Shown: one piece after another, positions 2,158 to 5,532 of the stretch
How positions within the stretch are numbered: position 1 is the stretch's first letter
Layout: each line of letters opens with the position of its first letter
Source of the DNA: a virus
IMG/VR virus record: IMGVR_UViG_3300029514_000040
Reading direction: 5' to 3' (one strand)
DNA length: 5,643 bases
Program-made: the position numbers and the translations under genes
Notes under the pieces: generated by a model
What the model saw: the letters and a program-made list of their open reading frames with translations, nothing else
The model's database searches: none
What the model was told of the DNA's origin: nothing

Positions 2158-2351
2158 TGTGAAAAAGTTGAAAACCATAAATTTGAAACATAACATCGTA
2201 AAAAATAAGCATATTTCAATGTTGAAAGGTTTGTTGAAAACTTGTTGAAATGTTGAAACACTTTACCAGACTAAAATCTATTGCGTATAACGATGTTGAA
2301 AAGTATGTGGAAAATGTTGAAAAGCATGAGTTTTCCACAAACTGTTGAAAA
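2158..2351 (+). repeat. Iteron array: direct repeats of GTTGAAA (extended form ATGTTGAAAAG)
   Basis: Perfect GTTGAAA heptamers start at 2167, 2221, 2233, 2244, 2252, 2295, 2316 and 2344, all in the same orientation. One-mismatch variants are TTTGAAA (2182) and GTGGAAA (2307). ATGTTGAAAAG occurs exactly twice, 21 bp apart (2293 and 2314). Several spacings are 8-12 bp. I did not spot the heptamer elsewhere in the genome by eye. Confidence 0.9.
2306..2339 (+). promoter_or_regulatory. Hairpin whose 9-bp stem is a DnaA-box consensus (candidate single-strand initiation / complementary-strand origin signal)
   Basis: TGTGGAAAA (2306..2314) and TTTTCCACA (2331..2339) are exact reverse complements with a 16-nt loop. 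TTTTCCACA fits the relaxed DnaA-box consensus TTWTNCACA. A third exact match is TGTGAAAAA at 2158..2166 (reverse complement TTTTTCACA). Confidence 0.45.
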
Positions 2352-3087: not shown

Positions 3088-3175
3088 AGACAAAAAGGTC
3101 TTTACTCAGACGGCAAAAAAGACCAAGGCCGTCAACGTCAGTCCGAAAAACATGAGAGGAGGCACCAGACTGTAA
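3056..3175 (+). CDS. Small basic DNA-binding / packaging protein (phiX174 J-like, gokushovirus ORF8-like), 39 aa
   Basis: This gene is absent from the ORF track because it is too short. A consensus SD AAGGAGGA (3040..3047) lies 8 nt upstream of ATG 3056. The protein is MAKRTKMTSSKDKKVFTQTAKKTKAVNVSPKNMRGGTRL, with 12 Lys/Arg and 1 acidic residue. The MRGGxRL C-terminus and Lys/Arg-rich body match small basic proteins I recall from gokushovirus-like genomes. Its TAA (3173..3175) overlaps the next ATG as TAATG. Confidence 0.75.
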   Translation: MAKRTKMTSSKDKKVFTQTAKKTKAVNVSPKNMRGGTRL

Positions 3176-3417
3176 TGCTGAGACATTATTATGCAATCTA
3201 TGACAAGGTGGCCAAGACCTTCAGCGGCCTTTTCGAGCAACAGAACGATGCAGTTGCAAGCAGGCTCTTCGAAAGCCAGCAGAAGAACAAGGACAGCTTT
3301 ATCAGCGTCAAGCCGGAAGACTTCAGGCTGCACTACATCTGCACCATGGAGGACGAGACAGGCGAAATCGTCGATAACGTCAACACGTGCGTATGTGAGG
3401 GCAAGCCCAATGAGTAA
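3175..3417 (+). CDS. VP5: VP5-like non-structural protein (80 aa)
   Basis: The protein is MLRHYYAIYDKVAKTFSGLFEQQNDAVASRLFE...PEDFRLHYICTMEDETGEI. The YxIYD...F...ND..A.R.F and PEDF.L...G..D..TGEI pattern resembles the conserved small VP5 family of Gokushovirinae as I recall it. Its position directly upstream of VP3 is syntenic. The start is coupled to the upstream stop. Confidence 0.75.
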   Translation: MLRHYYAIYDKVAKTFSGLFEQQNDAVASRLFESQQKNKDSFISVKPEDFRLHYICTMEDETGEIVDNVNTCVCEGKPNE

Positions 3418-3886
3418 ATTTAGGAGCGCATACAGCGGGCAGGTAAGGCATACGAGCCTGACCGGCAACGGCCGTGAACCTGAGTATGAGTACAAGGTAA
3501 CGGACGAAGGCCGAGAGCTGGTAAAAACCGGAGAAACAGACGTCTATGCACTCATCCAGAGCCGTCTGGATGAAACCAAAATCGAGAACATCATCAAGCG
3601 GGCAACGTATGACCCGACTGCACTGGGCAGTCAGGACTGGCAGACCAGCGAGACGATGACCGATATTTCGGACGCGCCGACAAACTACCACGAGTGGTAT
3701 GGGCGTATCAAAGACGCGGAAGCGGAGTTTGACAAGCTGCCCATCGAAATCAAAAACAAGTGGGACAATGATGTCGAAAAATACATCATGGCCTATGGAA
3801 CCCAAGAGTGGGCAGACAAAATGGGCATAGCAAAAAAGAAAGCCGAAGCGGAAAAACCGGCTGAAAAAAGTGAGGTGAAAGAATGA
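3410..3886 (+). CDS. VP3: VP3 internal scaffolding protein (158 aa)
   Basis: The track ORF 3191..3886 is open further upstream, but that upstream part is Arg/Ser/Thr-rich off-frame-looking sequence overlapping VP5. The internal ATG 3410 has GAGGG 8 nt upstream and overlaps the VP5 stop (ATGAGTAA). It yields MSKFRSAYSGQ...TGETDVYALIQSRLDETKIENIIKR... with an acidic Lys/Glu-rich tail, typical of gokushovirus VP3. The stop overlaps the VP1 start as ATGA. Confidence 0.85.
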   Translation: MSKFRSAYSGQVRHTSLTGNGREPEYEYKVTDEGRELVKTGETDVYALIQSRLDETKIENIIKRATYDPTALGSQDWQTSETMTDISDAPTNYHEWYGRIKDAEAEFDKLPIEIKNKWDNDVEKYIMAYGTQEWADKMGIAKKKAEAEKPAEKSEVKE

Positions 3887-5532
3887 ACCGCAACAGTGAA
3901 TACAACTTTGCACAGAATCCGCAAGTCGGAGTGAGCCGCAGCCGATTCCAGCGCAACAGCGACAACAAAACGACCTTCAACACGGGCGACCTCATCCCAA
4001 TCTATCTGGATGAGGTGTTACCGGGTGATACGCACCAAATCGACGTTGCCTGTGTCATGCGAATGGCAACACCCATCTTCCCGGTAATGGACAACGCCTA
4101 TTGCGACTTCTACTTCTTTTTCGTGCCAAACCGACTCTTGTGGGAGCACTGGAAGGAGTTTATGGGCGAGAACAAGGAAACCGCATGGACACCTAAGACG
4201 GAGTACAGTGTGCCGCAGGTGACAGCACCAGCAGACGGATGGGAAGAAGGTACGCTGGCGGACTATCTGGGACTGCCTACCAAAGTTAAAGGCATCAGCG
4301 TAAGTGCTCTGCCGGGCAGAGCCTACGGTCTCATCTATAACGAGTGGTTTCGAAACCAGAACGTCACGCAGCCGACACTTGTAGAAGTGACGGATGCGAC
4401 CACGACCGGCAAAAACGACGGCAGCGCTACCAATGACAGCGCTATCACGTTGGCAAAGCCTCTCAAGGCAGCGAAGGTGTTTGACTACTACACCGGAGCT
4501 TTGCCGGAACCGCAGAAAGGCGAGCCAATCACGATTCCGCTAGGCGGAAACGCACCGATTTACGGTTTTAAGGACATCGCCTTAACCCAAAAAATCGAGT
4601 CAAGCCCGTCGTCTCTCAACAGGATATGGACGAGTAAACCGGGCGCAGATGGGAAAAGTCTCATCTATGAGGACAGCGGGGCGACCAACAAAGGACAGAT
4701 TGGGTTATACGAATTTGACCAATGGGGCAACTACAACGGGAGCGGAATCTTGGGTGCAGACCTCAGCAACGTCACGGCAGCAACCATCAACCAGCTCCGT
4801 CAGGCTTTCCAGATTCAGAAACTGCTCGAAAAAGATGCGCGAGGCGGCACGAGATACCGCGAGGTGCTGCGCGAACACTTCGGAGTTATCTCTCCTGACT
4901 CTCGTATGCAGATTCCGGAGTATCTGGGCGGCTACAGACTGCCTATCAACGTGTCTCAGGTTATCCAGACCTCTTCGAGCGACGAAACGAGTCCGCTGGG
5001 CAACACAGCGGCGCTAAGTGTTACCACAATGAACAAACCCATGTTTACCAAGTCCTTTACTGAGCATGGTTTCATCATGGGCCTGGCAGTCGTCCGTACA
5101 GACCAGACCTATCAGCAGGGTATCGAGCGCATGTGGAGCCGCAAAGGCCGGTATGATTACTACTGGCCGGTACTAGCAAACATCGGCGAGCAAGCCATCC
5201 TCAACAAAGAAATCTATGCACAGGGCAACGCAAAGGACGATGAAGCATTCGGCTATCAGGAAGCATGGGCCGACTATCGGTATAAGCCGAGCAAGGTTAC
5301 CGGCCTGTTCCGAAGCAACGCACAACAGAGTCTCGATGCATGGCACTATGCACAGGACTACGACGCGCTGCCTACTCTGAGCACCGCTTGGATGGAACAG
5401 GGCGAAGCCGAAATGAAGCGGACTCTTGCGGTACAGTCTCAGCCGGACTTTATTGCAGACTTCTACTTTATGAACAAAACAACGCGGTGTATGCCGGTGT
5501 ACAGCATTCCCGGCCTCATCGACCATCACTAA
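3883..5532 (+). CDS. VP1: VP1 major capsid protein (phiX174 F-type jelly-roll, gokushovirus form with large insertion loop)
   Basis: 549-aa ORF with RBS GAGGTGA at 3872..3878. Hallmark blocks are FNTGDLIPIYLDEVLPGDT, DNAYCDFYFFFVPNRLLW, LPGRAYGLIYNEWFRNQN, INQLRQAFQIQKLLEKDARGGTRY and IPEYLGG. A variable segment between about aa 218 and 297 corresponds to the gokushovirus-specific surface insertion. Confidence 0.97.
   Translation: MNRNSEYNFAQNPQVGVSRSRFQRNSDNKTTFNTGDLIPIYLDEVLPGDTHQIDVACVMRMATPIFPVMDNAYCDFYFFFVPNRLLWEHWKEFMGENKETAWTPKTEYSVPQVTAPADGWEEGTLADYLGLPTKVKGISVSALPGRAYGLIYNEWFRNQNVTQPTLVEVTDATTTGKNDGSATNDSAITLAKPLKAAKVFDYYTGALPEPQKGEPITIPLGGNAPIYGFKDIALTQKIESSPSSLNRIWTSKPGADGKSLIYEDSGATNKGQIGLYEFDQWGNYNGSGILGADLSNVTAATINQLRQAFQIQKLLEKDARGGTRYREVLREHFGVISPDSRMQIPEYLGGYRLPINVSQVIQTSSSDETSPLGNTAALSVTTMNKPMFTKSFTEHGFIMGLAVVRTDQTYQQGIERMWSRKGRYDYYWPVLANIGEQAILNKEIYAQGNAKDDEAFGYQEAWADYRYKPSKVTGLFRSNAQQSLDAWHYAQDYDALPTLSTAWMEQGEAEMKRTLAVQSQPDFIADFYFMNKTTRCMPVYSIPGLIDHH

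Follow-up and report, generated by a model that had tools for sequence, protein, structure and literature searches.

Microviruses are thought to replicate by means of their own HUH initiator together with host elongation factors. The question raised by the gokushovirus genome in IMG/VR record IMGVR_UViG_3300029514_000040 is what binding sites (boxes) for DnaA, the initiator protein of the bacterial host, are doing in the long non-coding region (1900-2512) that lies between the rolling-circle initiator gene VP4 and a set of small open reading frames (ORFs). The window, i.e. the whole stretch of DNA analysed (5643 bases), comprises a circular genome of 5554 nt and an 89-nt terminal overlap. An earlier note on this DNA had pointed to three matches to the relaxed DnaA-box consensus TTWTNCACA, two of them paired in a hairpin stem, and had proposed a DnaA-dependent start site for complementary-strand synthesis. 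The present analysis suggests another answer. Positions 2110-2351 (~245 bp) have the full layout of a bacterial chromosomal origin (oriC), and are probably a viral imitation of the basal unwinding system (BUS) by which DnaA opens the host oriC; the element would bind host DnaA and open the adjacent AT-rich DNA.

A putative origin-type unwinding module in the non-coding region

The BUS is made up of DnaA boxes, a short GC gap, DnaA-trios (3'-GAT-5', i.e. 5'-TAG-3') and an AT-rich unwinding region (PMC8287927). It was defined in the incC region of Bacillus subtilis, and 85 % of bacterial origins are predicted to have one (PMC8287927; PMC6669920). Under the published search rules the box may have no more than two mismatches, 0-16 bp (typically a GC-rich gap of about 4 bp) may separate it from the trios, and the trios must be of the form NAN, with the consensus 3'-GAT-5', and number three or more (PMC8287927). 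On the + strand of the window the corresponding elements follow each other, 5' to 3', in the order AT-rich block, DnaA-trios, 4-nt spacer, tandem box pair and box arrays:

2110-2131, no strand: candidate DNA-unwinding element, 22 consecutive A/T (TATTTTTTATTTTATAATATAA)
2133-2153, + strand: DnaA-trio run, in the register TTG TTG TAG CCG TAG TAG TAG
2154-2157, no strand: G/C-rich spacer GCAC, 4 nt, between the trios and the first box
2158-2166, - strand: trio-proximal DnaA box, TGTGAAAAA on + and TTTTTCACA on -, an exact TTWTNCACA match
2166-2174, - strand: partner of the trio-proximal box in the tandem pair, AGTTGAAAA (GTTGAAAAC), one mismatch from TGTTGAAA
2220-2259, - strand: four host-type boxes, read on + as TGTTGAAAG (2220), TGTTGAAAA (2232), TGTTGAAAT (2243) and TGTTGAAAC (2251)
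2294-2351: second cluster, with TGTTGAAAA (2294), TGTGGAAAA (2306), TGTTGAAAA (2315), inverted TTTTCCACA (2331-2339) and TGTTGAAAA (2343)

The least stable 25-bp duplex of the genome starts at 2110, with a nearest-neighbour dG of -21.6 against a mean of -33.7 (standard deviation 3.1). The three box-proximal trios (2145-2153) are perfect, an extra TAG is present at 2139-2141, and the trios stand on the same strand as TGTGAAAAA. A (TAG)>=3 run, that is at least three trios, within 16 nt of a relaxed DnaA box was found in 0/2000 dinucleotide shuffles. The box at 2158-2166 differs from TTATCCACA by two mismatches, within the limit set for BUS boxes. The window thus presents a box, at least three trios located 5' of the boxes on the TGTGGATAA-reading strand, a spacer and a distal AT-rich region, and the trio CTACTACTATTACTACTA of Clostridioides difficile has the same form as the viral trios (PMC7561715). 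A BUS is further expected in a chromosomal origin, usually flanking dnaA, and here the element is found on a gokushovirus, between VP4 and the small ORFs. As it is not chromosomal, it is referred to as a mimic that would work like a BUS, and not as a chromosomal oriC.

An exact pattern search agrees with the earlier note in finding three TTWTNCACA boxes, at 2158-2166 (-), 2306-2314 (-) and 2331-2339 (+), and none elsewhere in the window (0.42 expected by chance; three matches reached in 1/200 dinucleotide shuffles). These three are variant copies of a far commoner direct repeat, TGTTGAAA(A), which occurs in seven exact copies and in further copies with one mismatch, all on the + strand between 2166 and 2351. 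When up to one mismatch is allowed, TGTTGAAA yields 22 matches (5.1 expected; 0/200 shuffles), while the host-type pattern TGT[TG]GA[AT]A yields 11 (0.72 expected; 0/2000 shuffles), and each genome carries 10-11 boxes. Beyond the tandem pair, eight more boxes of the TGTTGAAAA/TGTGGAAAA type are incorporated in the module, which read as TTTTCAACA/TTTTCCACA on the opposite strand.

Conservation and orientation of the module among phages

All viral counts given here are samples from a pattern scan of IMG/VR, among the matches listed, and derive mostly from microvirus contigs of 5-6 kb. The element is carried by more than 100 distinct gut gokushovirus genomes, spanning 32-100 % amino acid identity in VP4 and about 44-87 % in the capsid protein VP1, and all complete close relatives found via VP4 have the array on the coding strand. 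The GenBank relatives belong to the gut gokushoviruses and were recovered from the faeces of humans, pigs, dogs and monkeys; the module region is left without annotation in most of them, with a hypothetical protein annotated in only two records. An anchored consensus of 108 distinct elements reads TTATATATAACTTGTTGTAGnnGTAGTAGTAG GGnn TGTgGAAAa GTTGAAAAc. Only contigs with at least three copies of TGTTGAAA were included, so that this repeat is present in 100 % by selection, while TAGTAGTA and ACTTGTTG are each found in 98 % of the elements. The relatives carry (TAG)3-6, followed by a spacer which is nearly always 4 nt long (GGAG, GGGC, GCAA, GCAC or GGGG), and both the viral consensus and the dnaA-dnaN origins of bacteria have an AT-rich stretch where the window has its A/T block. 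At the trio-proximal box most relatives have TGTGGAAAA (TTTTCCACA on the other strand); this position is kept in the consensus, as is the GTTGAAAAC directly after it. Canonical TGTGGATAA and TGTGGAAAA occupy positions holding TGTTGAAAA in other viral lineages, and this interchange at equivalent positions supports a single protein, DnaA, as the reader of all three.

The orientation of the module was counted in 106 distinct genomes in which both VP1 and VP4 could be placed. Among the matches listed, it lies on the coding/packaged strand, downstream of VP4, in 89 and is inverted in the remaining 17. Fifteen of the inverted modules, belonging to a clade with 32-37 % VP4 identity, are situated directly upstream of VP4, while in two genomes (L124 and L055) the module is flipped within the same post-VP4 intergenic region and the flanking GC hairpins stay in place. 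Inversion in 17/106 genomes argues against a strand-specific signal on single-stranded DNA (ssDNA), and is the chief argument for action on the double-stranded replicative form.

A virus-specific motif, ACTTGTTG, spans 2131-2138 immediately 5' of the trios, and is found neither in the host origins nor in the tailed phage L120 described below. It inverts along with the module, and so belongs to the module and not to a fixed strand. The sequence ACTTG at 2131-2135 was considered as a phiX174-like nick site and rejected, since it flips with the module in the inverted genomes and cannot always be on the + strand.

Modules of this kind are also found in tailed phages. The phage L120 (1780-1980), which comes from the same gut dataset and encodes tape measure, Dit and minor tail proteins, carries an array with trios, in the layout AT-rich - TAGTAGTAG - GGGC - GGTTGAAAC TGTTGAAAA plus array, of the TGTTGAAA type. 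The repeat is constant while VP4 and the downstream ORFs vary, and the array recurs in a tailed phage, which together indicate a host factor as the binder. Furthermore, BUS-like modules with the canonical TGTGGATAA are present in large tailed-phage contigs (L284/L295/L313, L294, L303, L310, L319 and L320), with an AT-rich stretch, (TAG)3-6, GGGC or GGGG, a tandem box pair and then an array; neither dnaA nor dnaN was detected within the loci fetched from these contigs. BUS-type modules seem portable among phages, and may be widespread. A canonical-box version (TAGTAGTAG-N2-8-TGTGGATAA) was also sought in other microviruses, where the sole match among those listed (L317) lacks an AT-rich flank, contains just one box and is probably due to chance.

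Comparison with bacterial replication origins

For the bacterial scan one genome per species was used and three closely spaced copies of TGTTGAAA were required; the resulting loci are a sample, among the matches listed, and the host origins come from metagenome-assembled genomes (MAGs). The loci with TGTTGAAA arrays are rich in MAGs of Oscillospiraceae, Ruminococcus, Ruminococcaceae and other Clostridia. According to tblastn, the array is located in or beside the dnaA-dnaN intergenic region in 14/120 loci listed, and hidden Markov model searches of three such loci identified DnaA in all three (TIGR00362; best 1e-148) and DnaN in two (TIGR00663). The layout AT-rich - (TAG)3-5 - spacer - tandem box was detected automatically in 6/13 dnaA-adjacent loci tested. 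In these the boxes are TGTTGAAAC TGTTGAAAAC or TGTGGAAAAG, after which further boxes extend up to the end of dnaA, and the spacers are GGGG, GGGC or GGTA. The strand relationship between trios and boxes is the same in the window and in the native origins L178, L184, L190 and L201. Box clusters in the MAG origins were located as follows (locus coordinates):

L190: 3169-3294 and 4779-5015
L178: 1955-2279
L184: 6511-7584
L270: 2354-2937 and 4545-4813

In L190, L184 and L270 dnaA has boxes on either side, an arrangement also seen in the bipartite origins of Firmicutes. The canonical TGTGGATAA (classical TTATCCACA) is almost absent across the 13 dnaA-adjacent loci. The Oscillospiraceae/Ruminococcus MAG origins carry TTTTCAACA/TTTTCCACA, which looks like a lineage-specific variant of the DnaA box, of which no description was found.

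A blastn comparison of the viral non-coding region with the host origin loci gave no extended similarity, only box-sized matches, and recent capture of host DNA is ruled out on this ground. Since extended similarity between virus and host is lacking, it is the motifs themselves that are maintained, and the viral element is best described as apparent motif-level mimicry or an ancient capture, and not as fresh host DNA.

One further bacterial locus stands apart from the clostridial origins. L223, from a Mesoaciditoga MAG (Thermotogota), has the layout AT-rich - TAGTAGTAGTAG - GTAC - TGTTGAAAG TGTTGAAAAC at ~2400-2800 (locus coordinates), with 11 boxes. DnaA and DnaN were not detected within this 8-kb locus, and the module may be an origin unlinked to dnaA, or a mobile element.

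Genome setting and neighbouring conserved elements

All recognisable genes are on the + strand, and Pfam searches of all ORFs identified standard gokushovirus proteins only (VP1, VP3, VP4 and VP5). The genes, and three elements that flank the module, are:

16-876, + strand: VP2-like gene
877-1899, + strand: VP4, rolling-circle initiator (Pfam REP_ORF2-G2P)
1905-1941, + strand: VP4-proximal hairpin, a perfect 14-bp stem right after the VP4 stop, with loop ATCAAGAAA
1942-2109, + strand: optional GC-rich module with two strong hairpins (1985-2010 and 2067-2109), inserted downstream of the VP4-proximal hairpin and upstream of the AT-rich element
2390-2432, + strand: near-invariant GC-rich element, CGTCATGCTCTTCGAACGGCGCACCGCGCCTAGCGCATGAC, on the distal side of the box array, forming a nested hairpin
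3175-3417, + strand: VP5
3410-3886, + strand: VP3, scaffold protein
3883-5532, + strand: VP1, capsid protein

The ORFs overlapping the non-coding region (1963-2193 on the + strand, and short - strand ORFs) matched no Pfam family and sit in repeats or hairpins. A search of the whole window against Rfam at a permissive threshold returned chance-level matches only, none of them in 2150-2450.

The VP4-proximal hairpin was found in 66/71 distinct contigs among the matches listed (including L051-L162). Its stems co-vary between clades (GTGGGCCTAATCCT / AGCCCAGTACCT / CACTCAGCCAAGTA) and the loop keeps (CT)ATCAAG(T/A)A. The inverted clade has an analogous + strand hairpin (L138 4594-4628), whose loop is A(T)AGACAAG(G/T)A and which separates the start of VP4 from the AT-rich end of the module. 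The positions of the hairpin in both major configurations mean that the unwinding end of the module faces a strand-specific hairpin. The hairpin at 1905-1941 is a candidate for the VP4 nick site, the minus-strand origin or a terminator stem; where the optional GC-rich module is missing, a T-rich run comes directly after this hairpin, which could then serve as the VP4 terminator too. The GC-rich module itself (1942-2109), in which the hairpin at 2067-2109 is built of ACGCGCACGC repeats, is cleanly absent in many close relatives and present in others, as determined by blastn and from the extracted regions, and also occurs in divergent clades (L124 and L138). The region 1895-2125 folds at -55.1 kcal/mol (z = -9.1), as compared with -8.6 kcal/mol for the hairpin between the boxes at 2306-2339.

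On the other side of the array, the element at 2390-2432 has the consensus CGTCATGCTCTTCGnACGGCGCACCGCGCCTAsCGCATGAC and is nearly identical in 48 distinct contigs, among the matches listed. It is conserved beyond the level of the proteins, including clades with about 50 % VP1 identity; its fold is modest (-15.2 kcal/mol, z = -1.3) and it has no Rfam match. This element is another candidate for a sequence-specific origin signal. Further downstream, a perfect TTGACA-16-TATAAT promoter with a TG extension (2458-2485) drives the small ORFs (2513-2962), which vary between otherwise close relatives in the manner of a swappable cassette. A second, near-consensus promoter overlaps a terminator-like hairpin at 2699-2734.

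Proposed mode of action

If the module is a BUS mimic, host DnaA-ATP would bind the boxes on the double-stranded replicative form and then polymerise onto the TAG trios, melting 2110-2131. The resulting bubble would be an entry point for the helicase-loading and priming machinery of the host (in Firmicutes DnaD/DnaB/DnaI-DnaC and primase), and may also expose the hairpin at 1905-1941 to VP4. In Firmicutes, DnaD is recruited first, by the strand opposite the trios; DnaB and the DnaI-DnaC helicase come next (PMC10201434). What the phage would gain is speculative, and may be helicase and primase loading for replication of the replicative form, a theta-type mode, or exposure of the VP4 target; the position of the VP4-proximal hairpin, facing the unwinding end in both major configurations, is a hint towards the last of these. 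A stronger version, in which the replicative form carries a working DnaA-dependent origin and replicates in theta mode as an oriC-type minichromosome, linked to the host cell cycle, independent of VP4 and with a module shared with the tailed phages of the same hosts, is considered rather unlikely. Were it true, it would provide the integrase-less gut microviruses with a plasmid-like carrier state in the Gram-positive Oscillospiraceae/Ruminococcaceae, and could help to explain their long persistence in the gut.

A number of points weigh against DnaA-dependent unwinding by this module. DnaA binding and unwinding are inferred from the sequence grammar alone. In the window a CCG breaks the trio run, and the distance between the starts of the two proximal boxes is 8 nt, as opposed to 9 nt in the hosts. 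The + strand T-run of 2110-2131 may in part be the tail of the upstream terminator-like hairpin, or the T-tract of the VP4 terminator. The box TTTTCAACA differs from the classical DnaA-box consensus at position 6, and it is its location in MAG origins that suggests its status as a DnaA box. Similarly, the Oscillospiraceae/Ruminococcaceae are pointed to as hosts by motif identity only. In the two genomes of the L124 type the AT-rich end faces away from the VP4-proximal hairpin, so that the proposed coupling between the two fails. Finally, rolling-circle replication of phiX174 with an HUH initiator needs no DnaA, which makes the selective benefit of the module uncertain.

Alternative explanations for the box array

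The earlier note had placed the function in a hairpin. The boxes TGTGGAAAA (2306-2314) and TTTTCCACA (2331-2339) do form the perfect 9-bp stem that it described, with a 16-nt loop which itself holds a TGTTGAAAA box (2315-2323), and the stem is part of a longer inverted repeat, which is imperfect (22 nt, 82 % complementary). The predicted fold of 2285-2360 in single-stranded form is this hairpin (-8.6 kcal/mol, z = -3.2; 1/200 shuffles equal) and is better than that of shuffles, so that the window does present a box as a duplex in an ssDNA hairpin stem, as in A-site signals. In the model of the earlier note, this duplex box on the incoming ssDNA would initiate complementary-strand synthesis in the manner of the ABC primosome. 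For E. coli plasmids, Masai, Nomura and Arai reportedly described, in J Biol Chem in 1990, priming that starts at a DnaA box in a hairpin, and the majority configuration places the trios on the packaged strand, to which, according to the BUS model, DnaA binds in single-stranded form. However, the hairpin is not maintained among the relatives. Among the matches listed, the perfect box hairpin occurs in 6/91 distinct viral elements, these six being the window and its nearest relatives; an inverted box of any kind is found in 21/91 and none in 70/91. The copy at 2306 is TGTTGAAAA in L005, L008, L015, L016, L025, L031 and L046; several relatives retain TTTTCCACA with TGTTGAAAA opposite, a mismatch that is left uncompensated, while others have lost the 3' arm. 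The hairpin is also weak, with far stronger conserved hairpins nearby, and for 2100-2360 in single-stranded form the predicted fold is no better than that of shuffled sequences (z = -0.4). Furthermore, the inversion of the module is at odds with a signal confined to the packaged strand, and opposed boxes are ordinary in the bacterial origins examined. A complementary-strand origin of the ABC-primosome type is on these grounds very unlikely, and the hairpin is probably incidental, formed in a single sub-lineage where two boxes of opposite direction pair with each other, and is not the functional unit. Of the alternatives which the earlier note added, a titration site or an oriC-like element formed by the boxes and the flanking AT-rich DNA, it is the oriC-like element with involvement of host DnaA that is strongly supported, in the form of a full module matching the dnaA-dnaN origins.

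Titration fares less well as a sole function. The array might act as a sponge or sensor, which titrates DnaA as the replicative form multiplies and so stops or delays host initiation, or couples the replication or gene expression of the virus to the DnaA-ATP level of the host, with no unwinding involved. Clusters of boxes that titrate DnaA are known in bacteria (datA), and the 10-11 boxes per genome would be multiplied by many copies of the replicative form. A non-replicative role has also been proposed for the conserved set of eight DnaA boxes in T5-like phages (bioRxiv 10.1101/866236). Titration requires boxes only, however, and leaves the trios, the 4-nt GC spacer, the tandem pair and the AT-rich block unexplained; it is doubtful as the whole explanation, and plausible as an additional effect. 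The direct repeats, 8-12 bp apart beside an initiator gene, also resemble the iteron origins of plasmids and CRESS viruses, and one host origin (L226) has TGTCGAAAG beside its trios, so that a protein other than DnaA (VP4, another phage DNA-binding protein or Spo0A) might be envisaged as the binder. Yet iterons should co-vary with their initiator, whereas the repeat is unchanged while VP4 varies over 32-100 % identity; it also fills bacterial dnaA-flanking origins and a tailed phage, remains constant where the small downstream ORFs differ, and is replaced by TGTGGATAA and TGTGGAAAA at equivalent positions in relatives. The 0A box of Spo0A is TGNCGAA, and TGTTGAA does not have its conserved C. 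Binding by any of these proteins is regarded as highly improbable. The same is true of a role for DnaA in regulating transcription from the neighbouring promoters, whether the one at 2458-2485 or, in the inverted clade, that of VP4. A perfect sigma-70-type promoter does lie about 110 bp downstream of the array, and the module of the inverted clade is directly upstream of VP4; but the end of the array is more than 100 bp from the -35 element with the conserved GC-rich element in between, the position relative to the promoters differs between the configurations, and the trios and the AT-rich block have no role in transcription control.

Significance and comparison with known systems

A conserved origin mimic in a 5.5-kb genome would imply that the phage engages DnaA, a strategy not described for ssDNA phages. 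In the literature searched, no prior account linking gokushoviruses or other Microviridae to DnaA boxes or oriC was found, and none of the papers found on DnaA-trios and bacteriophages appears to concern a phage-borne BUS. The nearest precedent found is the oriC-like set of DnaA boxes in T5-like phages, for which a different role has been proposed (bioRxiv 10.1101/866236). Chromosomal BUS, and DnaA boxes in plasmid and phage origins, are already known; what appears to be new is that a rolling-circle phage with an ssDNA genome carries a complete BUS, and that its boxes match a variant used by the host. The module provides a sequence-based prediction of the hosts of abundant uncultured gut gokushoviruses, namely Oscillospiraceae/Ruminococcaceae (Clostridia); none of the microviruses in culture is known to infect a Gram-positive bacterium with a cell wall. 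It further suggests that these Clostridia use the variant DnaA box TTTTCAACA, and that BUS-type origin modules move among unrelated phages.

Several known systems share part of this architecture. Like datA, the element has many DnaA boxes packed closely together at a site other than the chromosomal origin; we know of no trio, GC-spacer and unwinding-element module in datA. A-site signals, in which a DnaA box is placed in a hairpin stem, derive from work on the E. coli plasmid R6K. The likeness to the A-site of the ABC primosome is that a relaxed DnaA box is found as a duplex within an ssDNA hairpin in this genome; in contrast, the viral hairpin is not conserved and the viral module has trios and an unwinding element, which are features of duplex origins. 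The ABC-type primosome has, to our knowledge, not been described in the Clostridia, the predicted hosts. Origins containing DnaA boxes are known from plasmids and phages, including P1 oriR, pSC101, F and RK2, and, as in these and in the T5-like arrays, the boxes for the host DnaA are found here in the non-coding control region of a mobile element. In the plasmid origins, however, DnaA assists an element-encoded, iteron-binding initiator, whereas the viral module would be a full unwinding unit of the chromosomal type, with no separate iterons. In comparison with the chromosomal BUS, the viral element differs in its setting, as it is located on a 5.5-kb ssDNA rolling-circle phage with its own HUH initiator and not beside a chromosomal dnaA; it also carries ACTTGTTG, stands in either orientation beside VP4 and has no extended similarity to host origins. 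It is like the BUS in its elements, their order, their strand relationship and their spacing, and its box variant matches that of the Oscillospiraceae/Ruminococcus origins.

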